A program made the translations under genes and the position numbers. A stretch of DNA of 64,000 bases from Clostridiales bacterium (lineage in GTDB: Bacteria > Bacillota > Dehalobacteriia > UBA7702), in NCBI GenBank assembly GCA_040766505.1, contig JAXGQJ010000004.1, forward strand, positions 17,549 to 81,548, read 5' to 3'. The notes below the pieces were generated by a model. The model was not told the DNA's origin, ran no database searches, and was given only the letters and a program-made list of their open reading frames with translations. Below are positions 1 to 55,257 of the stretch, one piece after another (position 1 is the first letter of the stretch; every line of letters begins with the position of its first letter).

Positions 1-954
1 GCATCTTCGCGAATACCGCCGGCAATTCCCCGTCCTTCCCGGCAGCGGCGGCCATTCTTCCCGCCGCCACGATCCAGGTTACCGCCTGGGAAAAGAGGAT
101 GGAGAGAAAAATCAAACCGAGGCCATAGACGATCCAGTCGCCGGCGAAGCCCAGTTCCCCCAAGAAGAAAAAGCAATCCATGATCGCCGTGACGATCGTT
201 GTATTTTCCGAGGGTACGATCACCAGAATCGCCAGCACCGCCACGATATAGAGGACGGAGATCAATACCGCGTTGCCGAGGGTGGCGACGGGCACGTCCC
301 GCACCGGGTTTTTCATTTTATTTCCCACCGTCGACATCACTTCAAAACCGAGATAATTGTAGATCAAGGCCGGGAAAAAGATAAACCCCTCATCGAGCCG
401 AGGAATAAAGCGGGCCAAGGAAAAATCATTGGCCGGCGCATTGCCCCGCAAAAGGAAGAAGGCGGCGGCCAGCGCCATGGAAAGAGCGATGGTAATTTTG
501 AAAACGGCGGCCATATTCGTTAAAAAGGTGGTGGCTTTCAGAGGACGCAGGCCGAACAGAATGATCAGCCAGATCATGGCGACGGCCATCGCGATCTGGG
601 CGGGAAAGGAAACCGCGCCCAAAAAGACCTGCCCAAGGATGCTGACCGTAAAAATGCTGGTCGAAGAAATCCAAATCGCATTGTTGACCCAATAATACCA
701 GGAAATTCTCGCGCCCCAGCGTTTGCCATAAGCCAGCTTGACCCAGCGATACATGCCCCCTTCGGCGGGAAAGCGGGAGCCCATTTCCGCCATAATCAGG
801 CCGGAAGGAAAGAAAAAGATGGCGGTGATGATCAGCGACCAACCGATGGAGGCAGGCCCCATGGAGGCCACTGGGCCCACCGTATCTAAAAAGAACATCA
901 CGCAGATCATGCCGAGAAAGATGTCCCGGCGTTTTAAGCCGTCTTCCCTTTGGT
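1..954 (-). CDS. APC-family amino acid permease, paralog 2 (C-terminal part lies beyond window start)
   Basis: minus-strand frame reads VENQREDGLKRRDIFLGMICVMFFLDTVGPVASMGPASIG..., colinear with N-terminus of permease 1028..2428; GTG start 952..954 preceded by GGAGGTG; plus-strand ORFs 429..695 and 738..986 are antisense shadows mirroring shadows 1851..2183 and 2226..2615 of the paralog. Confidence 0.7.
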
Positions 955-988
955 TTTCCACTACATTTTACACCTCCAGCGACTGAAT

Positions 989-1027: not shown

Positions 1028-2428
1028 TTACTCCACCGCCTTTCCTTTCTTCACGCTGCGCCAGGTCAAATATTCACCGACGGCGAGGGCGATGAGAACG
1101 CCGGCGAGCAGGGGCAAGGCTTCCGCGGCATAAAAGGGCTGGCCAGGCACCCAGAAAAAGACAAAAATGGTAAAGAGCAAGATGATCTGGCTGATATGGG
1201 CAAAAACGGTTCCCACCATTGGCGGGCCGGGGAAGCGGTAAGGCCGGGGCGTCGACCGATCCGATTTCCGCATCTTGAGATAGCCCTGGTAATTGATAAG
1301 ATAGGGGATCAAAAAGATGATGCTGGTAAAAGCGAAAAGCGTCCAGAACAGGTCTTCGGCGGAACCGGCCATAAAGCCGTAAAGCAATGTGAGAACCGTA
1401 CCCACCGTACCGGTGATCAACAGCGTGCCGAGAGGCGTATCGTTTTTCTTATGAAATTTGGCGAAAACCTGCGGCAGTTCATGGTCGACGGCGGCTTCCG
1501 CGGCCATCCGGCTGGAAGCGACGATCCAAGTAACGGTTTGGGCAAAGAGGATCGACAGGAACATGCAGCCCACCAAAATGATAACCGCCGAGGTGATGGG
1601 CCCGGAGCCGAGGCTGATCATAAAGGTATCGAGAATGCCTTCCACGATATTGATTTCCTCCATCGGGATGATCACCAGGATCGCCAGGGTGGTCAAGATA
1701 TAAAGCAGCGAAATCAGCACCGCATTGCCGATGGTGGCCCTGGGTACGTCCCGGGCCGGGTTTTTCATCTGGCTCCCCATTGAGGACATCACTTCAAAAC
1801 CAAGGTAATTATAAATCAAAGCAGGGAAAAAAGCGAAGGATTGCCCCAAGGTGGGCCGAAAATTGGCGAGGGAAAGATCGCTGGCGGCGCTGCCGTTCCG
1901 GAAGAAAAAGAGGCAGGCGCAGCCAATGATACCACCGGCGATGATGAGCTTAAACAGGGCCGCCACATTGGTCACCCATTTCGATTCCTTGATGGGCCGC
2001 AAACAGACGAGGATCACCAGCCAGATCATGGCGATGGTGAGAACGATCTGCACCGGGAAAGAAATATGGGGCAAAAAAAGCTGGGAAAAAACACCGATGG
2101 TAAAGGTGCAAACGGAAGAAATCCAAACCGCATTGTTGACCCAATACATCCAGGAAACCCGGGCCCCCCAGCGTTTGCCATAGGCCCGCTTCACCCAGGC
2201 GTACATGCCGCCCTCTTCGGGATAGGTGGCGCCGAGTTCCGCAAAGATCAGGCCGGAGGGAAAGAAAAAGATGACGGTGATAATCAAAGACCAGGTAATG
2301 GCCGACGGGCCCATCGCCGCCACAGGGCCGATGGTATCGAGAAAGAACATCACGCAGATCATGCCCAAAAAGATGTCGAGGCCGGTTAAACTCTTTTTCC
2401 GTACCGGCGGGGGAGAAATTTCACTCAT
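1028..2428 (-). CDS. APC-family amino acid permease, paralog 1
   Basis: ORF 1028..2497; multi-TM with FAELGATYPEEGGMYAWVKRAYG; start moved to ATG 2426..2428 (MSEISPPP...) which has AGGAG 9 nt upstream. Confidence 0.8.
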   Translation of the reverse strand: MSEISPPPVRKKSLTGLDIFLGMICVMFFLDTIGPVAAMGPSAITWSLIITVIFFFPSGLIFAELGATYPEEGGMYAWVKRAYGKRWGARVSWMYWVNNAVWISSVCTFTIGVFSQLFLPHISFPVQIVLTIAMIWLVILVCLRPIKESKWVTNVAALFKLIIAGGIIGCACLFFFRNGSAASDLSLANFRPTLGQSFAFFPALIYNYLGFEVMSSMGSQMKNPARDVPRATIGNAVLISLLYILTTLAILVIIPMEEINIVEGILDTFMISLGSGPITSAVIILVGCMFLSILFAQTVTWIVASSRMAAEAAVDHELPQVFAKFHKKNDTPLGTLLITGTVGTVLTLLYGFMAGSAEDLFWTLFAFTSIIFLIPYLINYQGYLKMRKSDRSTPRPYRFPGPPMVGTVFAHISQIILLFTIFVFFWVPGQPFYAAEALPLLAGVLIALAVGEYLTWRSVKKGKAVE

Positions 2429-2611: not shown

Positions 2612-4084
2612 TTAGGCAATCCCCAAATCCTTCTCTTCTTTAAGAATCATTTCCCGGATTTCCTTTTGCACATCTTCGGGCAAAGGCGTCGGCTTATGGG
2701 TTTTTAGGATGCGGATGGCCTCCCGGTCGCATTTTTCCACCAGGCTTTGGCTGCCCTCGGCCTGCCAGACATCGATCATATTGCGGTCGATCCATTTCGG
2801 CGTCGATTGGAAATTGCGCACCCGCTTCATCGTATGGGGTTCCGTCAGATAATTGCCGCCGGGGCCGATCTCCTTGATCAAGTCCACGGCCAGGCTTTCA
2901 TCGTCTCCGGGAATGCCCTGTAACACATGGCGCACCATCGCGGCAAATTCATTGTCCATGACCATCTGGCCATAACCCAAGGTAATGCCGAGTTCCAACA
3001 TGCCGAGACCGTAAATCAAATTGGCGCCGGCCAAAGCCGGCAGCAATGCCGTCAATGTCTTTTCATGGCCGGCCTGAATGTCGGCAAGTTTACTGTCCGC
3101 CTAGCCCCCCGCGACGAAACTGGGAATTTGGTAAAATTGGGCCATCCTCGCCACGGCGGCGCTGATCATACCCAGTTCGGGGCAGCCCACGGTGGCGCTG
3201 GCCCGGCGCAAATCGAGAATTGTGGTGGAGCTGCCATAGGTGACGGGATTGCCGGGGTTCACCATCTGGATCAGCACGATATTGGCGAGAATTTCGGCAT
3301 TGTGCACCACCAGTGTCCCCGCCAGGGTGATGGGGGAGGAGCCGCCGGCCATCGCCATCGACAGCGGATTACAGGGCAAACCGACCTTGGCATATTCCAT
3401 CAACATTTCCGTATTGCCCTTTGCCAAGGTCAATGGGCTGACGGGGCAGCCGCCCCCGGAGATGATCGGCCTTTCCTTCAATTTGTCCACACCGCCGACG
3501 ATCGCCGCCGCCATGGCGATGGCGATTTTCGCCTGGTGGGCGTCTTCCGCTCCCTGGCTTTGGTGCTTCGTTGTATTGCTGAGGGTCGCCTCGGCATTGT
3601 GCAGCATCGCCACCTTTTCATGTTTGTCCCGGGCCGTCAGGGTCTGCTCGATCACGTCGATTTGGTCTAAGGCGTCCACCAGCTTCGCCACATCGGCAAT
3701 GTCTTGCTTTGTTGAAGGGCGGCGCTCCTTCGTATCGGGATCCTCTACCATGATCCCTTCGCCAAAAGTAAGGAAGTTGACGCGCCTTCCCTCCAAAACC
3801 ACATCGTTCTTGGGATCCCTCCCGGCCAACAGCACTTTGGGCGGTGCTTTCCGAATCGCGTCTTCTACGACGGAACCGGGGATCCGCACAATTTTTTTGT
3901 CCCAGTCCACCCGGCAGCCGTGCTCTTCATAGACGGCCATCGCCGCTTCACTCTCTACAAAGATGCCGGTATATTCCAGCACGTCCAAGGTATCGAGGTG
4001 GATTTTATACAGCGTGTCTTCGCTCATCACCTGAAGGCTGAAACCCTCATAGGCGCCGCCGCCGGCGGCATAATTTCTCCTCAT
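2612..4084 (-). CDS. mttB: trimethylamine:corrinoid methyltransferase MttB, pyrrolysine-containing (in-frame UAG at 3101..3103)
   Basis: ORFs 3101..4084 (N-part ending ..[14 protein letters not shown]) and 2612..3055 (C-part) are in one frame separated only by TAG; read-through gives ..[39 protein letters not shown].., the MttB Pyl context; MttB-superfamily similarity over full length. Confidence 0.85.
3101..3103 (-). other. in-frame amber codon, predicted pyrrolysine codon of mttB copy 1
   Basis: cta on plus strand = UAG on minus strand at junction of ORFs 3101..4084 and 2612..3055. Confidence 0.8.
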
Positions 4085-4096: not shown

Positions 4097-5515
4097 TTAT
4101 CCTTCAAGGTCTATACGGGCCTTCGCGGCAATTTCGTCCATGGCGGCCACCACATCGGCGGAAAGCGGCTTTGCCTTATGGTTGGCCAAAATCTCGGCCA
4201 ATCTGTCCTGGGCCAAAGCGCGGTAATTCTGGCCGCCGGCAGCGAAAAGGAAGGAATTTTCCGCCTTTTCCATAAAGATTTCCCGGCGGAAATGGCGGAA
4301 GGTATGGTCGTGGCTGAGGAAATTGCCCCGGGGCCCCATTTCGGCGATCACGTCGAGGGCGGCGGTTTCCGCATCCAGGCTGAACTCCCGCAAATAGGCT
4401 TTGCTGTAACGGTAGACTTCGAGATCGAGAACAACGTCGACCAGCGAAGAGCTGAGACAGCTTTCCCGGGTGCCGAACCAACAGCAAACGTCGGGCCGGG
4501 TCATCAGCTTCATCGCCAGTTTATAGACATTGCGTTCGAACCCGGCGACGGTGGAGAAGTCTTTGAATTCCACGGTGCCGCCAACCTCGGAAGGCAGGCC
4601 GTAGAACCGGGCCATATCCACATCGGCGGCGCCCAAAAGCAAATATTCGCTGTTTTCATAGTCGATGCCACCGGTTCGCAAATCCGGCGCGCCGGCATCG
4701 GAAGAATAGAAGAAGCGGGCGTCTTCGGCGGCGCACTTCGCCACCATATAACAGGCCAGCACCTCGCTGTTGACCAATAGGGTGTCGGCGGCGACGGTCG
4801 CCGGGGAAGTGGTGGTCATCTGTGGCAGCGACATCGGGATGATCGGAATGCCGTGGCGGGCGGAAACGGCAATGGCGTCGGCAATGCCCCCTTCCAGCGC
4901 CAGCGGCGTTGTAGGCGCGGAAAGCAAAGACATGATCGGGTTTTTCCGCAGCCGGTCGGTACCGCCGGTGACGGCGGCAGCCAGCTCGATTTGCCATTGG
5001 GCCAGTTTGCCCGAGGCGGAAGAGCACTGTATATGTTTCGTTAAGTTACGAAACGAAATGTCCAGCGCTTTAAACTCCTGGTATTCCCCGTCAAATTCAT
5101 GGGGGAACATCAGCGGCCAAAAGCAGTCCATATCCGCGGAAGCGTCGGCTAAAATACAAAGCTGGGTCAAATCGTTCTCGGTCACATAACGTTTTTTGCC
5201 ACTGTCCTCGTCTTGAATATAGGGAACATAACCGGCTGGGGTTGTGAAGGGATGCCCGCCGGCGGGAAGGGACAGGGTGTGCTTTTCATCCCTCGCCCCC
5301 AACGGGAAAGAGGAAATGGCGAGGCCCAACATTTCCTTCACCATTTCTGCGGGGAACCGCACATTGTCGCCGATGACCTTGGCCCCCTTTTTCGCCAATA
5401 GGCCGCGAACCTCTTCGCTGCCGATATAAACACCGACGGTGGACAAGAGCTCCAATGTCTTTTCGTGGATATATTCCTGCTCTCCTCTACTTAATAATGA
5501 CAATTGTGTACGCAT
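4097..5515 (-). CDS. MttB-superfamily methyltransferase without pyrrolysine (MtgB/MtpB/MtcB-like quaternary-amine:corrinoid methyltransferase candidate)
   Basis: ORF 4097..5689; uninterrupted frame with sense codons at the Pyl column (..FYGLPSEVGGTVEFKDF..); start set to ATG 5513..5515 (MRTQLSLLSRGEQEY) with AAAGGAGA 7 nt upstream; 12-nt gap to mttB. Confidence 0.8.
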   Translation of the reverse strand: MRTQLSLLSRGEQEYIHEKTLELLSTVGVYIGSEEVRGLLAKKGAKVIGDNVRFPAEMVKEMLGLAISSFPLGARDEKHTLSLPAGGHPFTTPAGYVPYIQDEDSGKKRYVTENDLTQLCILADASADMDCFWPLMFPHEFDGEYQEFKALDISFRNLTKHIQCSSASGKLAQWQIELAAAVTGGTDRLRKNPIMSLLSAPTTPLALEGGIADAIAVSARHGIPIIPMSLPQMTTTSPATVAADTLLVNSEVLACYMVAKCAAEDARFFYSSDAGAPDLRTGGIDYENSEYLLLGAADVDMARFYGLPSEVGGTVEFKDFSTVAGFERNVYKLAMKLMTRPDVCCWFGTRESCLSSSLVDVVLDLEVYRYSKAYLREFSLDAETAALDVIAEMGPRGNFLSHDHTFRHFRREIFMEKAENSFLFAAGGQNYRALAQDRLAEILANHKAKPLSADVVAAMDEIAAKARIDLEG

Positions 5516-5560: not shown

Positions 5561-5577
5561 ATGCAAATCCGATGCCA
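5561..5577 (-). promoter_or_regulatory. sigma-54 (-24/-12) promoter candidate TGGCAT-N5-TTGCAT
   Basis: minus strand 5577->5561 reads TGGCATCGGATTTGCAT with correct GG-N10-GC spacing; about 46 nt upstream of the MttB-family start codon and directly downstream of a sigma-54 activator gene. Confidence 0.55.
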
Positions 5578-5591: not shown

Positions 5592-5630
5592 ATAAAAAAA
5601 TCCCCTCTCGGATGTTTCAAAAGAGGGAGA
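5592..5630 (-). terminator. rho-independent terminator of the sigma-54 activator gene
   Basis: minus strand CTCCCTCTT-13 nt loop-GAGAGGGGA followed by TTTTTTTAT. Confidence 0.5.
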
Positions 5631-5787: not shown

Positions 5788-7698
5788 TTATTCCGTTTTT
5801 TCCTCCAAACGCTTCAAACGCCGGTAAAGGGTCGAGCGGGCGACGCCCATATTTCGGGCGGCCAGGGAAATATTGCCATTGGCGGCCTTCAAGTGTTCCA
5901 ACAGCTCCTTTTCTTCCGATTCCTCCCGGCGGCGGGCTTCCTTGGCCAAAATGGCGGCAACGCTTTCCTTTATTGCGGGCTTTTCCGCTTCCCGCTTCGG
6001 CTTTTGCAGGGTGCCGGCAATATGCTGGGGCAAATCCTGCGGCGTGATCTTAGCGCCACCGGAAAGGTATAATACCCGCTCGGCCACATTCTGCAATTCC
6101 CGCACATTGCCGGGCCAATCATAGCGGCTTAAAGCCGCCAGCACCTTGGGATCAATGGCGGCCAGGGTTTCCTCCTTGCTGTAGCGCGCCAAAAAGTTGC
6201 TGAACAAAAGCAAAATGTCCTCTTTTCGTTCCCGCAAGGGCGGAATATGAAGGTTGATAACATTCAGGCGATAATAGAGATCCTGGCGGAAATTTTTCCG
6301 CATCACCTCTTCCAGCAAATCCTTATTGGTAGCGCAGATGATGCGCACATCCACCGGAATTTCCCGGCTGCCCCCCACCCGGGTGATGCGCCGCTCCTGG
6401 ATCACCCGCAATAGGGCGGCCTGCTGCTCCAAGGGCATATCACCGATTTCATCGAGGAAGATGGTGCCGCCCCGGGCCAGTTCGAATTTGCCCGGTTTGC
6501 CTCCTTTTTTTGCCCCGGTGAAGGCCCCCTCATCATAGCCCAACATCTCCGAGCCCACCAGTTCCCTGGGGATCGCGCCACAGTTGACGGCGACAAAAGG
6601 CCCCTTATAACGGGCGCTGCTGTTGTGGATCGATTGGGCGAACAGCTCCTTGCCGGTGCCGCTTTCCCCTTCGATCAAGACGCTGCAATCGCTGGCCGCC
6701 GCTTGCCGGGCGAGGAAGATCGTTTCCTGCAAATTGCCGCTATTGGTCACAATATCGGAAAATTGGAAACGGGACTGGGCGCCGCTGAAGATATTGACCA
6801 GCTTATGCACTTGGGCGATGGGCTTTAATACCAAAAGGCTGCGATGGGAATCCTCCCCCTTGGCCTGCAGCGGTACACCGGAAGCAACAAAGTGGCAATC
6901 CCCGCTCTTCAGCGGAAAATGCATTTCTACGTCGCCAAATTTCCTCCGTTGAAAGATCAGCCGGTGCAAATAAGAATTGGTATCTTGCAATATCTGCCGT
7001 TTAAAACAGGCCAGCAGCTCGTCTCCGGCGGACAACCACTGCTTGTCCGGCCCATAATTCCAAAAAGCGCCGTTGCCATCGGCTTCCAACACGACGATCC
7101 CTTCGGAAATGCTGGCGAGAACCGTCTTTAAATCCTGGTTGACGATGGCCAGTTCCCGGTTGGTCTTGGCCAATTCCTGGGTACGCTGGCGCACCTGGCG
7201 TTCCAATTCCCCCTGCAAATTTTTGAAATGGGTGATGTCCCGGCCTACGTCTTGGTATTCCAACACATTGCCGTATTCATCATAGAAGCAACGGCCGACG
7301 CTTTCCACCCAAACGATGCTGCCATCGGGTTGGCGCACACGGTATTCATATTTGTAATAGGGATTTTCCGGCGTCAGCGCCGCCACCGCCGCATCGATGG
7401 CGGGGCAATCCTCCTTAACGAGAAAATCCATTGTGTTCTGGCCCAAAAGCGCCTCGGGTTCCACATTGTAGAGCTGGCACAAGGCTTCGTTTACATAGAG
7501 AAGGCGATAGTCGGGGCCGGAGCGCTCCACGCATTCCGTCATATTCTCTAAAATGGAATCGTACTGGGCTTTTCGCAAGCGCAGCTCGGCGATTTCCCGG
7601 TTCTGTTCCTCTATCTTCGCCTCGGCATTTGCCAATGCTTCTTTAAGGCCCGCCGCCGAAGCCGCGGCCTTCGTTTCCGTCGGTTCCATCGCATCCAT
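5788..7698 (-). CDS. sigma-54-dependent transcriptional activator with N-terminal PAS sensor region, AAA+ domain and Fis-type HTH
   Basis: 636-aa ORF; GESGTGKE Walker A, GAFTGA sigma-54 contact motif, C-terminal ..LEHLKAANGNISLAARNMGVARSTLYRRLKRL. Confidence 0.85.
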   Translation of the reverse strand: MDAMEPTETKAAASAAGLKEALANAEAKIEEQNREIAELRLRKAQYDSILENMTECVERSGPDYRLLYVNEALCQLYNVEPEALLGQNTMDFLVKEDCPAIDAAVAALTPENPYYKYEYRVRQPDGSIVWVESVGRCFYDEYGNVLEYQDVGRDITHFKNLQGELERQVRQRTQELAKTNRELAIVNQDLKTVLASISEGIVVLEADGNGAFWNYGPDKQWLSAGDELLACFKRQILQDTNSYLHRLIFQRRKFGDVEMHFPLKSGDCHFVASGVPLQAKGEDSHRSLLVLKPIAQVHKLVNIFSGAQSRFQFSDIVTNSGNLQETIFLARQAAASDCSVLIEGESGTGKELFAQSIHNSSARYKGPFVAVNCGAIPRELVGSEMLGYDEGAFTGAKKGGKPGKFELARGGTIFLDEIGDMPLEQQAALLRVIQERRITRVGGSREIPVDVRIICATNKDLLEEVMRKNFRQDLYYRLNVINLHIPPLRERKEDILLLFSNFLARYSKEETLAAIDPKVLAALSRYDWPGNVRELQNVAERVLYLSGGAKITPQDLPQHIAGTLQKPKREAEKPAIKESVAAILAKEARRREESEEKELLEHLKAANGNISLAARNMGVARSTLYRRLKRLEEKTE

Positions 7699-7752: not shown

Positions 7753-7781
7753 TTGCCTTATTATGGTTTTGCGCCGAAGCC

Positions 7782-10535
<2,754 letters not shown>

Positions 10536-10559
10536 CAAAGCCGAAAATCACCACCATCA

Positions 10560-11506
10560 CGACCAGAGGGGCAAGCCGACAAACGGTCGGTCCTTCCACC
10601 TTAGGGTTAACGTACGCCCGATGCCCTTCGATCCCCGGTGTTGACCGGCGCGGTCGAGGGCCGGCACCGGCAATAAGCGACGACGTTGAGATTGACGCTG
10701 ATGGCGCCGGCGGGTGATCGCGGTACCGATCGGTACAGAGATGTTTCACCTGCCCTGCCTCACATTTGCCCGACGGCCGACGTAATCGCCACTCCCAGTT
10801 TACCTTGCGCCGGTCACCATTTCAAACAGCGCACCGGATCAGCCTAACCACCCAGGTCGTTCAAACCCCTTTTCACTGCGCCGAAAATGGACATCATCTC
10901 CGTACCGCGGACGATGCCCAATTACGCCCGGCCTGATCGCGTCCACTTCCGGGGGTAACGGCGATGTCCAGGCGTTCACCGGCGTGCGGCCACCGCCCAC
11001 CCATTTCCATGCCCCGGTTGGCGCCGACCTGTTCCGCCCATTTCCCGCGGAAATCGGCGCCCCGCCGATGGCGACGACTTCATCCCCACCTCGATCCCGG
11101 CGGCGGCGGCGGGCTGCCCCGCCTGCACCTCACCGATGCGGGCCTCTTTTACCGGAGAACCCAACATCATGAAGGCGACGATGAAAAGCAGAATCGCCAG
11201 GATAAAGTTGAAGAGAGCGCCGCCAAAAACCACCAGCATCCGCTGGGGTACGGTTTTTTTATCAAAGCCGTTGGGATGCTCGCTCTCCCCGTCCTCCCCG
11301 GGCATTTTGCAATAGCCGCCAATGGGAAACAGCCGCAGCGAATAATAGGTTTCCCGGCCTTGAAAGCCGATCAATTTAGGCCCCATGCCGATGGCGAATT
11401 CCTCTACATAAATTCGGTTCAGCTTGGCAAAAAGCAGGTGCCCTCCCTCGTGAAACAGGATCACAAGGCCGAAGAGCAGCAAGGTCAAAGCGATGGTTAT
11501 GAGCAT
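10560..11506 (-). pseudogene. rseP: RIP zinc metalloprotease RseP (site-2 protease); frame broken
   Basis: N-terminal 176-aa ORF 10976..11506 with HEGGH motif and TM helices; C-terminal part in other frames. Confidence 0.6.
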
Positions 11507-12652
11507 AGCAATACCTCATTGAGATAGGCCCCGGCCCATTCCTGCGCCGCCAAAACCGCGCCAAGATCCGGGTGCGCCACGGGATCATGGGCAGACAGGG
11601 CCTTTTCTACATATTTGGAAATATCCGTATATTTTATTCGGTTTTCCAGGAACATATACACCAAAATTTCATTGGCGGCATTTAGAACCGCCGGCAGCGT
11701 TTGTCCGCTCCGCCCCGCCTCATAGGCCAGGCGCAAAAGCGGAAATTTTTCCTTGTCCGGAGCGAAAAATTCAATCTTGCCCACCGCCGCGAAATCCAGC
11801 GGCGGCAACGGATTGGGCCGCCGCTCCGGATAGGTTAAGGCGAATTGGATCGGAATCCGCATATCCGCCCGGCCCATATGGGCGAGAAAGGAACCGTCTC
11901 CATAGGCCACCAGCGAATGGATGAGGCTTTGGGGCTGGATCAGCACATCGATGCGGTCATAGTCGATGCCGAACAGCCAATGGGCTTCGATAACCTCGAG
12001 GCCCTTGTTCATCATCGTTGAAGAATCCACCGTAACCTTCGCCCCCATCGACCAGGTGGGGTGTTGTAGGGCCATGGCGGGGGTAACCGCCGCCAATGCC
12101 TCCCGGCTAAAAGTGCGGAAGGGGCCGCCGGAGGCGAGAGTATGATCTTTTTCAAACCGCTTTTCCCCGCCAGCAGGCATTGGAAAATCGCGGAATGCTC
12201 GCTGTTCATCGGAACCAGCACGCCGCCCTTCCGCCGCAGCAGCAGCGCATCGACGTAGGTGTCCCGCCGTTACCAGGCTTTCTTTATTGATCGCCACGGT
12301 GCGCCCTCTTCCTCTAAAGCCCAAAGCAGCGGTTTTAACCCCGCCATGCCGGAAATGCCGTGAACGACGATGTCCACAGGGTGTTTCCCGCCGCGGCCAT
12401 TAAGCCCTTCTTCGCCGCAGAGAATTTCGCCGGAAAAGCCCCGCAATGTCCGTTTCAAAAGCGGATAGATGCGGGGTTTCCGGTGACTACAAGGCGGGGC
12501 CGGTATTTTTTTACCTGCCGGGCCAAATCTTCCACCCCGGGCGGCGGCCACCAAAACATCGACCCGGTACGCACCGGGAAACCAATCGACAACCGACAAG
12601 GTTTGGCCGCCGATGGAGCCGGTGGAACCTAAAAAAGCGCAATGGTTTTCAA
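11497..12652 (-). CDS. dxr: 1-deoxy-D-xylulose 5-phosphate reductoisomerase; one frameshift near N-terminus in a T6 run (12631..12636 region)
   Basis: ORF 11497..12324 (C-terminal 275 aa) plus fragment in 12270..12737 containing LGSTGSIGGQTL; adding one T to the T6 run restores MKTIALFLGSTGSIGG; TTG start 12650..12652. Confidence 0.7.
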
Positions 12653-13470
12653 AGGTTACCTCCCATATTATTTGGTAGGAAAATAGGTGACGGTTTCTGG
12701 TGAAAATAGTAGCAAAAGGGGGCGATGAAAAGCGCAAACCTGTCGAAGCGATCTAAAACGCCGCCGTGGCCGGGAATCAGGGTTCCGGCATCCTTCACAT
12801 CGGCCCAACGCTTGACCGCGCTCAAAAAGGTCGCCGATCTGCCCAAGGATCGATATTGAAGAAAGCCATCACCAGCGCGGGCCCCATCGGACGACATTCA
12901 TGATTAAATTGAAGAGGAAAACCACCAAAACAGCGGCGGCAATCCCGCCGATCGCACCTCCACCGATTTATTCGGGCTGACACTGGGCATCAGCTTATGG
13001 CGCCCGAAGGCGCTGCCGACAAAATAGGCCCCGGTATCCGTCAGCCATTGGATCAAAAAAATCATGCAGATGATCCAGAACCCATCTTGAAAATTAAAGC
13101 GGATCATCGCCAGCGTGCTGATGGTAAAAGCGATATAAAAGAGGACGAAGAAGGTCATCGCCATCTCTTCGATGCGCATACGGCCAAAGATGAAGAAAAT
13201 CGTATGCAGTGCGAAGATGATGAAATAGAGGCCGAGGGCCAGTGCCGGCACGTCCTGGCCATAGGCATTGGCGACCAAGAGCAGGATGGCGGAGGGAATA
13301 AACAGAAAGACGCTGAAGCGGTACTCCATCTTCTGCAAAATGGAGCGAAATTCAAGGCCCCCGATGATGGTCACCGCCAGCACAAAACCAGAAATACCCA
13401 GCTCCCAATAAGGCCCTCAAGAAGCATCAAGGGTACAAAAATCAGGCGCTGGCGGCCCGGGTCTTTAGCT
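12649..13470 (-). pseudogene. cdsA: phosphatidate cytidylyltransferase CdsA; frame broken
   Basis: fragments 12649..12897 (C-terminal IPGHGGVLDRFD motif) and 12904..13383 (TM N-terminal part). Confidence 0.6.
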
Positions 13471-13479
13471 TACCAAACA

Positions 13480-14200
13480 TAGCATCCTTACTTTATATCG
13501 CCGTACCGCCGCCGTCTGTTTTGGTAGGCGGCGATGGCTTTATAAAACTCCCCTTTCATTAAAATCCGGCCAGTGGACGCCGGTAAAATAAAAATTCCGC
13601 ATAGGCCGATTGCCAGAGCAGAAAATTGCTGAGCCTTTGCTCTCCTGAGGTCTGCGGATCAAATCTCATCCTTGCCCATCGGTGTAAAGATAATGGCGAA
13701 ATCCACGGTTATGGTTTCCGGACTGGCTTTTCCCCTTTTGTATCCGCTAATATGGCCCGCAAAGCCCGGAAAATCTCCTGGCGGCCACCATAGTTGATCG
13801 CGATATTCAAAATCAGCCCCGTATTGGCCGCCGTCAGGTTCTCCACCCGCCGAATCTCCTGCTGCACATTTTCCGGCAGATATAAGGTCGCCTAGGGGCA
13901 ATGGCCGTGACATTCTTCTCCTTCATTTCCTTCCCTTCACGATCAGGAAATTTCGGATCAGATCATGAGGAAGGACACTTCTTCCATGGGACGGCGCCAA
14001 TTTTCCGTCGAAAAACAATAGAGGGTCAAAACCTCTATGCCTTCAGGCTATCGGCGGTTCTGATCAGCGTTTTGATTATCTCGCGGCTGGCGGCATGGCC
14101 CCGGACGCGGTGGCAGCCGCTGTTTCTGGGCCCAGCGCCCATTGCCGTCCATGATCATTGCCACATGGGCGGAAGCGGATGCTTTTCAATTTCCAGCCTT
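13480..14200 (-). pseudogene. uppS: undecaprenyl diphosphate synthase UppS; frame broken
   Basis: minus-strand translations HVAIIMDGNGRWA (ca. 14120), EGIEVLTLYCFSTENW, LNIAINYGGR (ca. 13790) lie in different frames. Confidence 0.6.
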
Positions 14201-14295
14201 AGATTGTCCGTTTCCTTGTCCATCGGAACCTTACACTTTCTTTGCCAACTCTTCCGTTCTGTAAAATGGCTGCTGCAAAAACCTCAAAAAGTTAG

Positions 14296-14330
14296 AAAAA
14301 GGGCTGTAACATGCCGGTTGCAGCCCCTCT
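14296..14330 (-). terminator. terminator-like hairpin plus T-run after ferredoxin gene
   Basis: minus strand GGGCTG-14 nt loop-CAGCCC then TTTTTCT. Confidence 0.4.
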
Positions 14331-14337
14331 CCCCTTT

Positions 14338-14502
14338 TTATTCTTCAATAATAGCGCCGCTGGGGCAAGCATCGATGCAAGTTCCGCATTCTGTGCAGGT
14401 ATCCTGATCAATGACGTAGATGTCACCCTCTTTGATGGCTTCGCTGGGGCATTCGTCTACGCAGGTTCCGCAAGCGGTGCATTCGTCGGTGATTCTGTAC
14501 AT
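14338..14502 (-). CDS. small 2x[4Fe-4S] ferredoxin (54 aa)
   Basis: two CxxCxxCxxxCP motifs ([24 protein letters not shown]); ATG 14500..14502 preceded by AAAGGAGGTG; longer 76-aa ORF-track version lacks an RBS. Confidence 0.8.
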
Positions 14503-14548
14503 TCTCTTACACCTCCTTTCAGCTATCGTCAAAAATTGCCGGGGCAAT

Positions 14549-15110
14549 TTAGACTTCCATAATTTCACTTTCCTTCACGCCGGTGATCTCGTCCACCTTT
14601 TTTACGAATTTCTCCGTCAGCTTTTGGGCCTCGTCCAGGCCTCTTTTGGCATCGTCTTCCGATATTGCATGGGATTTTTCCAATTCCTTAATATCGTCGT
14701 TCAATTCCCTGCGGAGATTGCGAACCGCCACTTTGGCCTCTTTCCGCTTTCTTTTAACCACTTCAACTAATTCTTTGCGCCTTTCCTCCGTCAATTGGGG
14801 AATGGCGATGCGGATCACTGTGCCGTCATTGTTTGGGTTTAACCCTAAATCCGATTTCAATATCGCTTTCTCGATGGCGCCGATCACGGTTTTGTCCCCA
14901 AGGTTGAACCAGCAAAAGCCTGCTTTCCGGCACGGAAATGTTGGCCATCTGGTTCACCGGCGTCGGCACGCCATAATAATCCACCTGATTTTATCAAGCA
15001 GGCCGGCGTCGCCTGCCCCGCCCGCAAGCCGGAGAAATCCCGCTTCAGGGTTCACAGGTTTCTTGTCATCCGATCTTCCGGCCGATTCCATAAACTCTTT
15101 AATCATAAGA
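14549..15110 (-). CDS. frr: ribosome recycling factor; N-terminal ~70 codons out of frame
   Basis: ORF 14549..14887 equals C-terminal 112 aa of Frr (..[17 protein letters not shown]..). Confidence 0.7.
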
Positions 15111-15129
15111 CTCCCCTCCTATGAAAGTT

Positions 15130-15839
<710 letters not shown>

Positions 15840-15889
15840 CCATTCGATCCCCGGGGAAGCGCCCCGGGCACTCCCATCGTCAATCTTTT

Positions 15890-16527
15890 TTTAAACATGG
15901 AACCCACTTCTTCGGCAAAACCGCAAGCGTCCTTCTTTCCATGCCTTCTCCCACCTGATAGCGGGCAAAACGGCGCACCGAGATGTTTTCACCGATCTTG
16001 GCGACCAAATTCGTGATCAAGCCCTGTACGGTGATGTTTCATCCTTGATGAAGGGTTGTTCAAAAAGGCAGATTTCCTTAAAATACTTTTTTCGATGCGG
16101 GCTGTCGACCATTTTATCGACGATCTTTTCCGGTTTGCCTTCGTTTGGGCGCTTCGGTACTCCTGCTCATGTTCGATTTCCGCGGCGGGGATTTCTTCCC
16201 GTGAGTCATATTGGTGGTTCGAGGCTGCGCAATCTGCATCGCCAAATCCTTACAGAGGATCTTAAACTCCTCGTTCTTCGCCACGAAATCCGTTCGGCAG
16301 TTCACTTCCAGCAGCATAGCCGATGCGGCCGCCGGCATGGATATAGGATTCCACCAAGCCTTCGGCGGTGATGCGGCCGCTTTTTTTCGCGGCTCATGCT
16401 TCCGGTCTCCCTTAACATCGATCGCTTTTTCCATATCTCCACCGACTTCCACCAGGGCTTTCTTGCAATCCATCATCCCGGCGCCGGTTCTTTCTCTCAG
16501 TTCCTTTACCATTGCGGCTGATACCAT
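15890..16527 (-). pseudogene. tsf: elongation factor Ts; frame broken
   Basis: N-terminus [38 protein letters not shown] at 16527 with AGGAGGT RBS; remainder fragmented. Confidence 0.6.
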
Positions 16528-16627
16528 GGTTTTACCTCCTAAACGATTTATAAGGAAAAGCAGGGAATATTCCCTGCTAATCATTGTTTTGCTTACTCAG
16601 CAACCGCCTGTTCAATAGCAGGTTCTT

Positions 16628-17338
16628 CTAATTCGCCGCCGGCTTCCGCTTGGGCCGCTTCCGCCAGCGGAGAAGCCTGTCAATCATGTCGGCCATGCGT
16701 CCGATGTTGAGCTTCACTGCGCGGATCGCGTCGTCATTGCCGGGAATCACATAATCCACCTCTTCGGGGTCGCAGTTTGGGTCGACGATGGCGACGATCG
16801 GAATATGCAGCTTCCTCGCTTCGGCGATGGTGATCCGTTCCTTTCGGATCCACGACAAAATGGCGCCGGGCAGCCGCTTCATTTCCTTGATGCCCCTGCG
16901 AACTTTTCCAGTTTTTCCCGTTTCCCTCTCATCTGGGAAACTTCCCTTCTTGGGCAAAGCTCCAATGTGCCGTCGGCTTCCATCCGTCTGATATCCCGGA
17001 TGAACCGAGCGCCGAATCGTCTTATTATTGGTCAAAAGGCCGCCAAGCCATCTCTGGTTGACATAGAACATGCTGCAGCGTTCCGCCTTCTTCCTGATGG
17101 CGTCCTGGGCTTGTTTTTTTGTGCCGACGAAGAGGATCGATCCTCCCTCGGCGACGGTGTCTTTGATGAAATTATAGGGCCTGTCGATCTTATGAACGGT
17201 CTTTTGCAGGTCGATGATATAGATGCCAATTCCGTCTGTAAAAATATACGGTGCCATTTTGGGGTTCCAGCGCCGGGTTTGGTGGCCAAAATGCACCCCG
17301 GCTCCAAAAGCTGCTTCATGTAAATATCCTCGCCATTT
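16628..17338 (-). pseudogene. rpsB: 30S ribosomal protein S2; several single-base frameshifts
   Basis: ..[35 protein letters not shown]..; homopolymer indels visible, e.g. near 16940..16960 the assembled LELCPRR becomes the S2 consensus LELLPKK by adding one T and removing one G; 5' part of ORF 16628..17587 is read-through from hslU. Confidence 0.7.
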
Positions 17339-17469
17339 TTTTGTTTCCTCCTTTTGTTTTGCCGCCGGATCTGTCATTTTCATCATAAGACCCGCAGGCA
17401 ATACCTTATGATGAATCGAAACCCGTGTGTTTTCCTTTAACATGTTATCATAAAGTCCCCTGCCATGCA

Positions 17470-18817
17470 AGGGTTTTATAAAATATCTCATAAATCCCTT
17501 GTTCTTCATAATATGCTCCATCTTATCCAGTACGAAGCCGTGATCCACCAGGGCGGCACCCCGCATCAGATCCGGGGCCTCGAACAATAGCGTATTCCAA
17601 ACCTTTTTCCATGATGGTGTGCAGGCGGCGGGCGCGCCAATATTCGGGCCCTATTGTTGAGCCTGTCGGCCATGTCGGCGATGGCGTCAATCCCGGAGGT
17701 CGAATTCCACACAGACCCCGTCGGCTTTCCAGGCAATCGGTATACTGTTTCAATAAGGGAATTTTCCGGCTCCACCAAAAAATCCTGCGGTAATCTTCCC
17801 GGCTTAAACTTTCCAAACTCCACGCGGATCGGAAAGCGGCCCTGCAATTCCGGCATCAGATCTGAAGGTTTCGCCACATGAAAAGCGCGCCGGCGGCGAT
17901 AAAGAGTATGTGGTCGGTGCTGACGCTACGCTTCGTATTGACGATGGCGCCCACTCAGGGGGCAGAATATCCCTTTGCACGCCCCCTCGGGAAACGTCGA
18001 TGCCCGGCCCTTTTCGGCGACGGCGATTTTATCGATCTCATCCAAAAAGACGATGCCCATCTGTTCCGCCTTGTCCACCGCTTCGGCGGAAACCTCTTCC
18101 ATATCGATCAGTTTATTGCTTTCTTCCTGGACGAAAATGCGCCGGGCCTCTTTTGGCCGTTACCCGCCGTTTTTTCTTCTGTTTGGCATGAAACTGCCGA
18201 GAACCTCCCCCAGATTGATGCCCATTTCGTCCATTCCTCCCAGCATAGCGCGCTATTGGGAGTGTCCTCCACTTCTATTTCCAGCAATTCCGGTCGAGGT
18301 CGCCGCTGGCCAGCAGGCGGCGGATATAATGGCGGCGGCGCTTATTTTCCTCGGCGGCGGTCAACAATTCCTCCGGCTCCTCTAAATCCTTGGCATAGCC
18401 CTGCATCATCAACTGGTTGAGCAGCCTGGCCTCCGCCAGTTTCTCCGCCTGCTTTTGAACGGTGGCCTGGCGATCGGCCTTCACGATGGTGACGGCGTTT
18501 TCCACCAGATCCCGGATGATGGAATCCACATCCCGGCCCACATAGCCGACCTCCGTAAATTTCGTCGCCTCCACCTTGACGAAAGGGGCATTGACCAACC
18601 GGGCCAGGCGGCGGGCGATCTCCGTTTTTCCCACGCCGGTGGGGCCGATCATGATGATATTTTTCGGCACCACGTCCCTCTGCATCTCTTCGCTCAGCTT
18701 TTTGCGGCGAAAGCGGTTCCGAAGGGCAATGGCGACGCTGCGCTTCGCCGCGTCTTGGCCGATGATGTATTTATCCAATTCAAAAACGATTTTACTGGGG
18801 GTCAATTCTTCGCTCAT
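17470..18817 (-). pseudogene. hslU: ATP-dependent protease ATPase subunit HslU; frame broken several times
   Basis: N-terminal 180-aa ORF 18275..18817 (Walker A GPTGVGKT); PSDLMPELQGRFPIRVE in 17566..17877; [14 protein letters not shown] in 17523..17816. Confidence 0.7.
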
Positions 18818-25166: not shown

Positions 25167-26394
25167 TTACTTCTTGCCCTTGGCCCCGCCTTGGGCGAGG
25201 ATATTCGTTTCATAGGTGCGAACCAACCGCGCTTTGTCCCGGCTGCGCCGGAGTGCGATCTGCACCAGACGATCCAGCAATTGAGAAAAAGGCAAACCCA
25301 CCGGCTCCCAAAGATAGAAGGAAAGGGAACCGGGGATCGTATTGACTTCGTTTAAATAGACCTTGCCTTCGGCCCTGTCGATCATAAAGTCGAGACGCCA
25401 AACGCCGCTGGCGAAGAGGGCGTCAAAGGATCGCTTGGCAATGGCGCGGATTTCCTCCGCCGTCTCTTCGGGGATCTCCGCGGGAAGGCGGCTCTTCAGG
25501 CCGATCATGCCTTTATTGGCATTCGGGTACTTATCGTCAAAAGTGATGTTGATGCACCCCGGTTGGCTTTTTCCGCCGCTTTTATCGTCCGTATGCAGGT
25601 ATTTATCCTTGAAGGAAAGAATATCGTCCTGAGAGAGGGGTTCCTCCAAACAGGAAAGCAGCGTTTCATGCTCGTCGCCCAGGACGGCAATGTTGATTTC
25701 TTGCAAGTCCATGATCGCCGGCTCCACCAGCACCTTTTGGGAAAAACGGTGGGCGAGATCGATGGCGTCCCGCAGGCCTTCCCGGTCCATGGCCTTTTTA
25801 ACGCCGATGCTGGAGCCGGTGTCCGCCGGTTTCACGATGAGCGGATAGGGAAACTTTTCCTCTATGGCGGCGAGGATGCTTCCTTCCTCCAGGTTCCAGC
25901 GGGAGGAATAGAACCAGAAACAATCGAGCACCGGGATGTCCCGCATTTGACAGAGGGCCTTTTGGGCCACCTTATCCATACCCACCGCCGCCGCCAGGGT
26001 TCCCGGCCCCACATAGGAATCCCGGTCATTTCCAAGAACCCTTGCAAACAACCGTCCTCCCCTGGGCGCCATGCATCACCGGGAAAAAAACGTCGATCTT
26101 TGCCAGCGGCCCCTTGCTGAGGAGCCCCTGGGGATAGGGGAAAATCTGCCCGTCGCCGCCATTAGCGGACAATAGCACCTTTTTTAATTTCCCCGGCAAT
26201 GCTTTTAGATCTTGAAAGCTGTCGATATTCCACAGGGCGTCGCCGGTATACCATTGGCCGTCCTTTGAAATATAGATCGGCACCACTTCATACTTCTCCC
26301 GATCCAGGCCGTGGATTGCCTGCTGGGCCGAGATGATGGCCACTTCGTGCTCCACAGAAGGGCAGCCGAACAATACGCCGACTTTCGTTTTCAT
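25167..26394 (-). CDS. ddl: D-alanine--D-alanine ligase; two frameshifts near 26030..26080
   Basis: ORF 25167..26072 (C-terminal 301 aa, ATP-grasp) plus 26026..26418 (N-term MKTKVGVLFGC); LQGFLEMTGIP motif in a third frame (25862..26047). Confidence 0.75.
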
Positions 26395-30705: not shown

Positions 30706-32197
30706 TCAAATGTGGTATTCGGAAAGGGGAAGGCGGCATGCGCTTTCCATTTCATTTACGATATCCCGCACCGTTTTGCCAATATGGGGCAAAAGGGGCG
30801 GAACCTGATAATTCCGGTACAAATCCAAGGCCCGTTCATTGGCATTTTGGAGAATGTCCCGTCTGCCCGCCGCCTCCCACTCTTCCGGCATGGTGCGGTC
30901 AATCAAATTTGACTGCGACTGGCTTTCCTTAAAATATTGAAAGGTATGGCTGTGCGGATACGAATTCTCCGCCGGGGCCCACCTCGCGGATGGCGGCCAA
31001 TGCCAAAGATTCCTCATCCACCTCGATGCCTTTCAAAGCGTGAAGAATCATACCGGCGAATTCATTGTCCATAACCAGCTTGGAATAATCGAAGGTAATG
31101 CCCAATCCCAGCATACCCAGGCCATAAATCACATTGGCGCCTGCCAATGCCGCCAACAGCGCCGAGAGGGTGGTCTCATGGCCCGCTTGGGCGTCGGGAA
31201 CTTTGGCATCGGCCTAGCCGCCCGCAACCCAACTGGGCAAATGATAAAATTGGGCAATTTGCGCCACCGAGGCGGAGATCATGCCCAATTCCGGCGCTCC
31301 CACCCCGGCGGTGGTGGTGCGCAGATCCATCATCGTCGTGGAGCTGCCATAAATAAAGGGATTCCCCGGCCGGATGCCCTGGCACAAAACGAGGCCCGCC
31401 AACACCTCGGCATTGTGAACCACCAAGGTGCCGGCGAGGGTCACGGGGCCGGTTCCGCCCGACAGGGCCATGGAAAGCACATTGACGGGGATGCCTGCCA
31501 TCGCGGCTTCCATAATCACTTCCGTCGTATCCGGATTCAAGGAAAGGGGGCTGTTCGGGCAACAGAGAGGGGAATAGATCGGCCGCTTTCTCAGATTCTC
31601 CATCCCTCCTTGGATCGCCGCGGCCATGCGAATGATGGCTTTGGCGTTCTGCCCATTGCCCGCGCCAATAAAGGCATGTTTCGTTGTGTGATGGAAAATG
31701 GCCTCCGCATTGTGAATGCTTTGCACTTCCGGCGGAACTTCATCGGCGCCCAGCGCCCTTTCATAGACGGCGATGTTTTCCATCGCGTCACAGAGGCGCG
31801 TGGCGTCGCCAACGTCTTTTTTTGTAGAATTTTTCGCGGAGCGGCTTACCGGATCCACCACCTTGATTCCTTCGCCAAAATTGGTAAATGTCACCTTTTT
31901 CCCGTAGAGATAGACGTCGTTCTTGGGATTGCGCCCGCAGAGAAGAACAGAGCTCGGCGCCGCCCTGAGGGCGTCCTCCACCATGCTGGGCGTTACATAA
32001 ACGATTTGCCGGGCGGCGTCAAATTCCGCGCCCAGGCCTAAAAAAATGTCTTGCGCCTCCGGAGAAATCACCTTGACGCCGGTGTTCTGCAATATATCCA
32101 GGGTAGCGCCATGCAAGAGATACAGGTCATCTTCGGAGAACAGGTTCAACCCTATGCCGAGTATTTTCTCCTGCCCCGCCAATAAAGCGCGATTCAT
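30706..32197 (-). CDS. mttB: second, divergent pyrrolysine-type MttB-family methyltransferase (in-frame UAG 31214..31216; additional frameshift ca. 30965)
   Basis: ORF 31214..32197 ends ..[11 protein letters not shown], then TAG, then in-frame ..[17 protein letters not shown] (30929..31156); last ~100 codons continue in another frame (30706..31017); about 50% identical to copy 1. Confidence 0.75.
31214..31216 (-). other. in-frame amber codon, predicted pyrrolysine codon of mttB copy 2
   Basis: cta on plus strand; same alignment column (VAGG-O-A) as in copy 1 although flanking nucleotides differ. Confidence 0.75.
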
Positions 32198-33954: not shown

Positions 33955-34033
33955 GACAGCACCATCTGAGCCGGCCAAAACCTTGGTCGATTCCTCTATG
34001 AAGAGACATCCGAGCAAGCGAAGGAGGATGGTA

Positions 34034-35356
<1,323 letters not shown>

Positions 35357-40620: not shown

Positions 40621-41271
40621 TTATGACCGCAATAGCTCCATGGCTTTCGTGACGCCGTCGGCGGCGTTTTCCGCAAATGCGTCGGCGCCGATCCGTTTGG
40701 CCCAATGCTCCGTTACCGGCGCGCCACCCACAATGGTTTTGAATTTTCCCTTCAGCCCTCTTTCCAGCAACAGGTTTTCCAAATGCTTTTGCTGTATCAT
40801 GGTTGTGGTCAACAGGGAGCTGGTGCCGATAATGTCCACATCATATTCCACGGCCTTTTCCAGGATCGCGGCATTGGAGACATCCCGTCCCAGGTCGATC
40901 ACCTCAAAGCCATTGGCAACCAAAAGTGAGGCTACGATCCCTTTGCCAATGTCGTGAATGTCGCTTTCCACCGTAGCGATCAAAAACTTGCCGGCGCTGC
41001 GTTTTTCCCCGCCGGAAGTTGCCAGAGCTTCATTTAAAACCGTCAAAGCTTCCTTCATTGTTTCCGCCGCCCGCATTAGTTCGGGCAAAAACAGCGTCCC
41101 TTCTTCAAACCGGTCGCCGACTTCCATAATGCCGGGAATGAAACCGTCGTCGATCAGCCGGTTGGGCGCCAGGCCCATTTCCAAACCTTGTTTGGCGATG
41201 TCCACGGCCCCTTCGGCATCCCCTTCCACAATGGCCTGTAAAGCATCGTTTAACAGCGCGTCATTTTTCAT
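40621..41271 (-). CDS. methylamine-family corrinoid (cobalamin-binding) protein, MtbC/MttC-like
   Basis: 216 aa; B12-binding DxHxxG (SDIHDIGKGIV); 30-nt gap to mtbB. Confidence 0.8.
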   Translation of the reverse strand: MKNDALLNDALQAIVEGDAEGAVDIAKQGLEMGLAPNRLIDDGFIPGIMEVGDRFEEGTLFLPELMRAAETMKEALTVLNEALATSGGEKRSAGKFLIATVESDIHDIGKGIVASLLVANGFEVIDLGRDVSNAAILEKAVEYDVDIIGTSSLLTTTMIQQKHLENLLLERGLKGKFKTIVGGAPVTEHWAKRIGADAFAENAADGVTKAMELLRS

Positions 41272-41301
41272 TTCTCCGCCCTCCAAATATTGTGTTTCCG
41301 G

Positions 41302-42690
41302 TCAAAAGGTCATACCGGTTTTTTTTGAAAATTTCTCCACACAGTTGATTTCAATTCCCAATAGTTTTGCAATATTGGCCTTGGCCTCAATGCCCCGGCT
41401 GGCGGCTCCATACCCCATGAATACAGTGGCGATGTCCAGATCCTCCCGGACTTCCCGCATGGCAACTTCATCGGTGAGATCGAGCAAACCAACCCCCAGC
41501 TTTCCGGCGACATATTCCTTCGCTTCATTTAAGCGCATTTTTTTTGCCAGTTGCATCCGTGCCACCAAATCCCCGGCGGTGCGAACCCCCCCCAAGCCGG
41601 AGGCCTGGCTGTGAACGATGGCCATCCCGGAAGGATCGCCATAACCAACCTACAATCCGTCCATTTTGGCGATTTCCGCCATAGCGGTAGAGGCCCGGGA
41701 AACCGCGTCGATGGGCGGCGTGATCTGCATCGGCACGCCGCCAACCCCCATGCCCACATTGGCGTGAACCGGAATCGGCGAAATTTCGCCGCAATATTTA
41801 CACATCGTGACCGACCGTGCCAAGTTCCAGGGAAAACTTTTTTTGGTATTGGTATTGACCACAGCGCCAAAAACGTCGCCGCCGGCCCGGGCTACCATTT
41901 CCGCCTGGCGGTGCGGATACATGCCCGCCAACCTCTCGCCATGGTAGGTAATTTCGCCATGGAAGCCGAGAATAAATTCACCGGCCATGCCGACTTCAAT
42001 TTGGATCTTGGGATATTTCGCTTTTAGATTTTCAACGCCCCGCAACACCGCATAGAATTCCGCATCTCCTCCGGCGGCGGTCGTGTCAAAGTCGATGCCG
42101 TCGGCGCCGGCTTCAAACATCGCGGCGCCAAGCAAGCCGATATCGCCGATCAGCATTTCCGCGGTTTCCATCTGTGCTTCCTGGGCCTCCCGTATCTTAC
42201 CCTTTGGCATCAGCTCCGCCGCGTTTTCAGCGGGGCCGTCGGGCTTCGTATACATGGGCATATTCGGCATTGCGCCGTATAAAAGCGGCAAGGTTGTGCC
42301 CAATAAGGCCTCCGCCGTTATATATTGCTCCTCGGGCAAGATGGTTTTCAACGGCTTGAAGCTATAATGCACATAGGCCATCTCCAATGTGTCGGCCATT
42401 AAAACCCGTTCATAGGTTTGCAGGATCTGCGGCCTTGCGATCGGAAGGCCCAGCCGGGTGAATTTCAGCGGCTGAGAATCATAGGTAAGAACAAGTTCAT
42501 TGCCTCGCTCCACACTGACAAATTTGCGCGCTTCACAAATGATTTCCATCAGTTTTTCAATATCATCACCGGTGAGCGGCGGACATTTGCAATTCTTTAC
42601 AGCCTGGGCCACCCCGCTTTCGATCTCTTCACGAATCTCAGCCCGTGACATCTGCACGAAGGTTCCGTCTCCCATGCGTGTGCGTATCAC
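41302..42690 (-). CDS. mtbB: dimethylamine:corrinoid methyltransferase MtbB, pyrrolysine-containing (in-frame UAG 41650..41652)
   Basis: ORFs 41650..42690 (..[22 protein letters not shown]) and 41302..41625 in one frame separated by TAG: ..[38 protein letters not shown].., matching the archaeal MtbB Pyl context as recalled (..VDGI-O-TIGVGDP..). Confidence 0.8.
41650..41652 (-). other. in-frame amber codon, predicted pyrrolysine codon of mtbB
   Basis: cta on plus strand at junction of ORFs 41650..42690 and 41302..41625. Confidence 0.75.
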
Positions 42691-54180: not shown

Positions 54181-54189
54181 AATCGTAGA

Positions 54190-55250: not shown

Positions 55251-55257
55251 AAGAATT

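Follow-up and report, generated by a model that had tools for sequence, protein, structure and literature searches.

The mttB gene and its in-frame UAG codon

A window of 64 kb (the whole stretch of DNA analyzed here, from contig JAXGQJ010000004.1 of the Clostridiales bacterium assembly GCA_040766505.1) carries on its minus strand a gene of the trimethylamine:corrinoid methyltransferase family, hereafter mttB copy 1, which is interrupted by one in-frame UAG codon at the position of pyrrolysine (Pyl). Its frame runs from an ATG at 4084, preceded by GGAGGAG, to a TAA at 2612-2614 and comprises 490 codons including the UAG; the sole internal stop is the TAG at 3103..3101, codon 328, after which the frame stays open for another 162 codons. 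In the list of open reading frames (ORFs) the gene is represented by two pieces in the same frame (3101..4084 and 2612..3055), which a first-pass annotation had regarded as the N- and C-terminal parts of a single MttB protein, and the ORF list, Pfam and TIGR02369 agreed with this view as well as with the coordinates and sequence quoted for it. When the TAG was replaced by X, the joined protein matched Pfam MTTB from end to end (312 bits), the NCBIfam equivalog TIGR02369 ('trimeth_pyl') over profile positions 1-468 of 469 (699.8 bits, the curated equivalog cut-off being 525 bits), and Methanosarcina barkeri MttB (PDB 7xcl) with 385 bits (residues 2-485 against 3-490). Of the TAG-joined pairs of long ORFs in the window, only three fall within real genes, each of them a methylamine methyltransferase gene; the others were rejected as antisense or gene-boundary artefacts.

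Pyl is the catalytic residue of the characterized MttB, whose structure has been solved (7xcl). In the alignment to this protein, X328 of copy 1 pairs with X334 (Pyl334), which bears out the earlier proposal that the TAG occupies the Pyl column. The 7xcl segment at this column reads YVAGS-X-SDAKVPDDQAGHEKT, and the copy-1 codons following the TAG align with the active-site segment SDAKVPDDQAGHEKT. The GG-O-A context that had been quoted for copy 1 is indeed present, but it does not hold as a signature, since the context is GS-O-A or GT-O-A among orthologues and GS-O-S in M. barkeri. Among 159 homologous protein sequences, 84 are exactly 327 aa long, i.e., they end at the TAG of codon 328. Several full-length homologues that are 48-55% identical to copy 1 have a standard residue at the Pyl column, including Trp (P0006, P0007, P0012, P0013, and P0016), Leu (P0027 and P0036), and Ser (P0011), and are sense-codon relatives very near the Pyl clade. 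Another sequence, P0130, has Gln at this column though it clusters at ≥90% identity with TAG-cut orthologues, which could be explained by a TAG-to-CAG change or by a gene call made with an alternative code.

Conservation and selection across the UAG codon

A comparison with ten orthologous loci (L001-L010) from NCBI, ENA, and Logan assemblies, which have 76-86% protein identity and represent several genomic contexts, demonstrated that codon 328 is TAG in all ten, and that the frame is open for 162-163 more codons. The TAG itself is invariant among these orthologues, whereas neighbouring codons vary at their third positions. As a substitution-type feature kept across independent assemblies, it is therefore unaffected by assembly indels. 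The ratio of nonsynonymous to synonymous substitution rates (dN/dS, Nei-Gojobori) between the window and L001 was 0.061 for the part ahead of the TAG and 0.082 for the part behind it; because synonymous divergence (dS) is near saturation in this pair, both values are approximate, yet clearly far below 1. In the same frame, the first ATG, GTG, or TTG past the TAG occurs at codon 344 or later, and its position is not conserved (codon 351 in L008). Across codons 329-344, comparisons with orthologues gave synonymous:nonsynonymous changes of 5:1, 7:1, and 9:0. On this evolutionary evidence, the pattern is that expected of a UAG through which translation continues: codons that precede the first possible restart change almost only synonymously, which argues that the ribosome would read through.

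Operon structure and presumed regulation

The features of the copy-1 operon and of the other loci discussed below are listed in Table 1. The stop codon of the first operon gene, which encodes an MttB-superfamily paralogue of the non-Pyl type, lies 12 nt ahead of the copy-1 ATG with a ribosome-binding site between them. This paralogue is 27% identical to copy 1 and 84% identical to its 471-aa orthologue in L001, and its TIGR02369 score (258 bits) is under the cut-off. Upstream of it, the sigma-54 type element at 5577-5563 reads TGGCATCGGATTTGCA, the conserved form being TGGCAT-N5-TTGCA; in L001, L004, and L008 the same element precedes the called start by 68-72 nt, and in L003 it lies 24 nt before a longer gene call of 486 aa. 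The adjacent gene for a sigma-54-dependent activator, whose best NCBIfam match is PrdR (under cut-off), was present beside the cassette in every orthologous locus that reaches upstream of it (L001-L009).

Table 1. Features of the window that are discussed in the text (positions count from the first letter of the window)
Feature	Position	Strand	Evidence or remark
Second APC-superfamily permease	2..967	minus	Pfam AA_permease_2; runs off the window edge
APC-superfamily permease downstream of mttB	1028..2401	minus	Pfam AA_permease_2 (191 bits); NCBIfam matches
mttB copy 1, pyrrolysine-type trimethylamine:corrinoid methyltransferase	2612..4084	minus	TIGR02369; Pfam MTTB; 7xcl alignment
Rfam PYLIS_3 (RF02510) match	3004..3103	minus	100 nt from the UAG; 75.8 bits, gathering score 38
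In-frame UAG, pyrrolysine codon 328	3101..3103	minus	Opposite X334 of 7xcl; TAG in 10 orthologous loci
Non-Pyl MttB-superfamily paralogue, first operon gene	4097..5515	minus	Thr at the Pyl column; Pfam MTTB (180 bits)
Sigma-54 type -24/-12 promoter element	5563..5577	minus	TGGCATCGGATTTGC(A); 62 nt upstream of the ATG at 5515
Terminator-like hairpin and T-run closing the activator gene	5602..5626	minus	
PAS-domain sigma-54-dependent transcriptional activator (enhancer-binding protein)	5788..7698	minus	Pfam PAS_3, Sigma54_activat, AAA_lid_14, HTH_8
mttB copy 2, Pyl-type	30706..32197	minus	TAG at 31214-31216, also codon 328; PYLIS_3 match
BCCT transporter	35735-37039		Beside the 37643-38905 paralogue
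Second non-Pyl MttB-superfamily paralogue	37643-38905	minus	Met at the Pyl column; below the TIGR02369 cut-off
Class-III aminotransferase	39086-40387		Beside the 37643-38905 paralogue
Methyltransferase-cognate corrinoid protein (MtbC/MttC-like)	40624..41286	minus	TIGR02370; MtbC model; adjoins mtbB
mtbB, pyrrolysine-type dimethylamine methyltransferase	41302..42690	minus	In-frame TAG at 41650-41652
PucR/CdaR-like regulator	42820-44457	minus	Upstream of mtbB

Downstream of mttB, the first of the two permeases is a candidate methylamine permease whose position is conserved in the orthologous loci, and the second was also found in L004-L010. A permease, MttP, is likewise encoded in the archaeal mtt operon, and the permeases beside copy 1 are in keeping with this. 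The arrangement of the whole cassette (activator, sigma-54 element, non-Pyl paralogue, Pyl-MttB, and permeases) is conserved in the orthologous loci, and versions of it are present in hundreds of metagenome assemblies. The cassette recurs, always lacking a corrinoid protein, in several uncultured Bacillota lineages and in differing genomic contexts.

Other methylamine methyltransferase genes in the window

Besides copy 1, two further genes of the window have an in-frame UAG. One is mttB copy 2. Its N-terminal 327 residues share 52% identity with those of copy 1, and it contains a single frameshift near 30947-30960, reflecting either an assembly error or a pseudogene. The other is mtbB, whose product scored 481 bits against TIGR02368 (cut-off, 369). 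The corrinoid protein gene that adjoins mtbB matched TIGR02370 with 211 bits, just under the curated cut-off of 215.3 and hence not a formal pass, and the MtbC model with 192 bits. Thus, mttB copy 1, mttB copy 2, and mtbB are three independent members of Pyl families in the window, each with an in-frame UAG specific to its family, a combination for which a Pyl-decoding host is the only economical reading.

The second non-Pyl paralogue (37643-38905) is, like the one in the copy-1 operon, only distantly related to copy 1 (26-27% identity for the two). Its island includes an aldehyde dehydrogenase gene in addition to the genes for the BCCT transporter and the class-III aminotransferase, which suggests the catabolism of some quaternary amine.

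UAG usage and the predicted recoding element

TAG also serves as an ordinary stop codon in the same DNA. It ends 8 of the 44 supported ORFs, including rpsB, hslV, the PucR-like regulator gene, and ylqF (at 16631, 18829, 42820, and 59375). Because UAG still terminates ordinary genes, it is neither avoided nor reassigned genome-wide; like other Pyl-using bacteria, the host decodes it ambiguously or competitively.

All three UAG-containing genes match an Rfam model of the Pyl insertion element. Model position 1 of PYLIS_3 falls on the copy-1 TAG, and the first three model positions are UAG themselves; PYLIS_3 also matched copy 2 (74.6 bits, 31117-31216), and PYLIS_2 matched mtbB (58.2 bits, 41553-41652, passing the gathering score). 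However, the 100 nt past the copy-1 UAG (3004-3103) had no fold better than shuffled sequences (z-score -0.84), and when five homologues, the copy-2 segment among them, were folded as an alignment, many pairs were broken and the covariation term was unfavourable. PYLIS as a functional cis-acting RNA at mttB was rejected on these grounds. In the absence of support from either stability or covariation, the PYLIS_3 matches at mttB therefore seem to reflect the conserved coding sequence that follows the UAG rather than RNA structure.

Pyrrolysine machinery and sequence quality

Several observations weigh against a Pyl-decoding interpretation of copy 1. ARAGORN, which detected tRNA-Pyl in 15 of 26 control loci, found no tRNA of any kind in the 64-kb window. 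A tblastn search of the window with Desulfitobacterium hafniense PylSc (query sequence verified against PDB 3dsq) gave no match, and a Pfam and NCBIfam sweep of the supported ORFs of the window revealed no pylS, pylB, pylC, or pylD. Moreover, mttC, the corrinoid-protein gene, was found neither in the copy-1 operon nor in its counterparts at the ten orthologous loci, and the sole corrinoid gene of the window is the one beside mtbB, 36 kb from copy 1; the adjacency of mttC to the methyltransferase gene is typical, not strictly defining. Finally, the assembly has many frameshifts, copy 2 included, which indicates either poor sequence or a decaying genome.

A tblastn search of the window with all ORFs from 120 PylS loci (described below) likewise gave no match. 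What the sweep identified instead were housekeeping genes only, namely proS, ispG, dxr, pyrH, tsf, rpsB, hslVU, xerC, trmFO, topA, dprA, ddl-murF, yifB, rnhB, trmD, and rimM, together with those of complex I. An ATP-grasp gene at 25170-26072 was considered as a PylC candidate and rejected, as it is Ddl next to murF. The pylT and pylSBCD genes of the host genome would accordingly be expected outside the 64-kb window. In two unrelated metagenome-assembled genomes (MAGs) of Clostridia (L042 and L116), pylS is located directly beside a pyrH-frr-uppS-cdsA-dxr cluster. The same cluster occurs in the window at about 8 kb from copy 1, where it is accompanied by no pyl gene, and the two observations are probably a coincidence.

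The frameshifts are unevenly distributed. The dxr (382 aa), ispG (354 aa), and proS (567 aa) genes are whole in the syntenic locus L001 and split over several frames in the window; copy 2, tsf, pyrH, the aldehyde dehydrogenase gene, and some nuo subunit genes are also split. Frame-split housekeeping regions are found at 7780-18800, 32400-35200, 49600-51200, and 54000-58000, and the regions at 2.6-7.7 kb and 19-30 kb are free of frameshifts, with the copy-1 operon and topA intact. This unevenness suggests indel errors in the assembly (noisy long reads?) more than a biological cause. Separately, a short integrase-core (rve_2) fragment, a remnant of an insertion sequence, was observed at 62775-63065 (minus strand) adjoining rimM and trmD.

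Alternative explanations

Taken together, 2612..4084 is very probably an intact gene for a Pyl-dependent MttB, whose UAG is read as Pyl by machinery encoded elsewhere. It is quite unlikely that the UAG-containing mttB and mtbB genes are relics that were functional only in a recent ancestor, the Pyl machinery having been lost or the genome being in decay. Such an origin would be in line with the missing pyl genes and with the many frameshifted genes of the window (such as mttB copy 2, proS, ispG, and dxr); nevertheless, copy 1, its partner paralogue, and the regulator are intact amid broken neighbours, the codons past the TAG evolve with a dN/dS of 0.08, and the clustering of the frameshifts in genes that are whole in relatives fits assembly error better than decay. 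The error-prone, indel-rich assembly might also invite the view that the TAG is a plain nonsense mutation or a sequencing error in a pseudogene. This has a minimal probability and is effectively refuted by the orthologues, the dN/dS values, and the 7xcl alignment, given that ten independent assemblies and a 52%-identical paralogue have the TAG at one and the same codon, and that it falls exactly at the Pyl column and is followed by an open frame under selection.

Gene callers annotate ORFs of 327 aa and 129-148 aa in all relatives, as would be expected if the UAG terminated translation and the C-terminal 147-162 residues were made from an internal start, so that two polypeptides assemble into the enzyme. 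Such a split gene is very improbable, because the earliest start is at codon 344 or later, and yet the post-TAG codons before it are strongly conserved at the amino acid level and align with the M. barkeri active-site segment, and because the start shifts between loci. An equally improbable reading is that near-cognate or suppressor decoding inserts a standard amino acid (e.g., Trp or Gln) at the UAG; homologues of about 50-55% identity with Trp, Leu, or Ser at the column and the Gln of P0130 are in its favour, whereas copy 1 passes the Pyl-specific equivalog model, the residue is catalytic in the characterized enzyme, and the TAG has been strictly kept even though one substitution would give a Trp or Gln codon.

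According to the preferred interpretation, namely an intact Pyl-dependent gene, the UAG at codon 328 would be read by the amber-suppressor tRNA(Pyl) charged by PylS, with this tRNA, PylS, and the pylBCD biosynthesis genes all presumably encoded outside the window. Read-through would yield a 490-residue enzyme with Pyl in its active site, which is predicted from its family to move a methyl group from trimethylamine, the putative substrate, to a Co(I) corrinoid protein. The non-Pyl paralogue, Pyl-MttB, and the APC permeases would be expressed in this order from the sigma-54 promoter, and the PAS-domain enhancer-binding protein next door presumably switches the operon on. It is also conceivable, albeit unlikely, that the non-Pyl and Pyl methyltransferases work one after the other on some methylated amine that is not free trimethylamine, which would be an undescribed two-enzyme route, or that the Pyl enzyme has a substrate unlike that of archaeal MttB.

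Host lineage and implications

The TopA protein of the host is 67-82% identical to those of MAGs labelled 'Firmicutes/Clostridiales bacterium' and 53-60% identical to those of its nearest named relatives, including Ca. Formimonas warabiya, Desulfofundulus, Desulfotomaculum, Desulforamulus, and Moorella. Judging from these identities, the host is placed, at order level, in an uncultured Bacillota clade near Peptococcaceae/Desulfotomaculia. Ca. Formimonas warabiya is the nearest named relative by TopA (59%), and its MttB (P0062) is 61% identical to copy 1 and is also a 327-aa, TAG-cut sequence. The Formimonas genome ('DCMF') has pylT, pylSc, pylSn, and pylBCD as well as 23 Pyl-containing methylamine methyltransferases, and Desulfotomaculum, Desulfitobacterium, and Thermincola have been named as Pyl users (PMC6778437).

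A scan with the PylS motif pattern RPMLAPNLY-N48-FExGxCxRKES-N12-HLxEFTM matched at least 120 loci in at least 120 species genomes, and all loci listed were true PylS. Among the matches listed were members of Peptococcaceae, Desulfitobacteriaceae, Sporomusa, Acetobacterium, Anaerovoracaceae, Oscillospiraceae, Lachnospiraceae, Selenomonadaceae, Thermacetogeniaceae, Actinomycetota, Desulfobacterota, and others. The first-pass annotation had treated Pyl in a Firmicutes-like backbone as a rare trait and as the key signal of the window; this view is outdated, as the classical Pyl users among bacteria are Bacillota of the Peptococcaceae type (PMC6778437) and PylS is present in so many loci. A Pyl-type mttB in such a backbone is thus expected rather than surprising, and the locus does not change what is known of Pyl.

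The practical consequence is one of annotation. In gene calls, each of the three methyltransferase genes is truncated at its UAG, and dozens of database entries are 327-aa stubs; hence, the annotation of the host genome needs Pyl-aware correction. Biologically, the host lineage probably consumes tri- and dimethylamine under anaerobic conditions.

Comparison with known systems

With M. barkeri MttB (Pyl334; PDB 7xcl/7xcm/7xcn), copy 1 shares full-length homology, a TAG opposite Pyl334, and the conserved active-site segment D-x-K-x-x-D-x-Q-A-G-H-E-K-T. It differs in being bacterial, in having no adjoining mttC, and in being paired with a non-Pyl paralogue under a sigma-54 promoter. In addition, the bacterial methyl acceptor pathway presumably ends in tetrahydrofolate and not in coenzyme M. 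The resemblance to Rfam PYLIS_3 is one of sequence match (75.8 bits), with no thermodynamic or covariation support.

The glycine betaine methyltransferase MtgB of D. hafniense (PDB 2qne) has the same superfamily fold (268 bits to copy 1) and is the model for the two non-Pyl paralogues of the window. Copy 1 differs from MtgB in that it has a UAG at the Pyl column, where MtgB has Leu, and passes the trimethylamine equivalog cut-off.

A further likeness is to the Pyl-containing mttB genes of Peptococcaceae-type Bacillota (Desulfitobacterium, Desulfotomaculum, Thermincola, and Formimonas), with which copy 1 has in common the family, the in-frame TAG, and the 327-aa gene calls. These genomes encode many MttB paralogues of both the Pyl and non-Pyl types (PMC6778437). 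Differently from these users, the host of copy 1 belongs to an uncultured clade and has no pyl cluster within the 64-kb window. Pyl codons, this enzyme family, and hosts of this type had all been established before, and the conserved cassette around the gene is the one addition made here.

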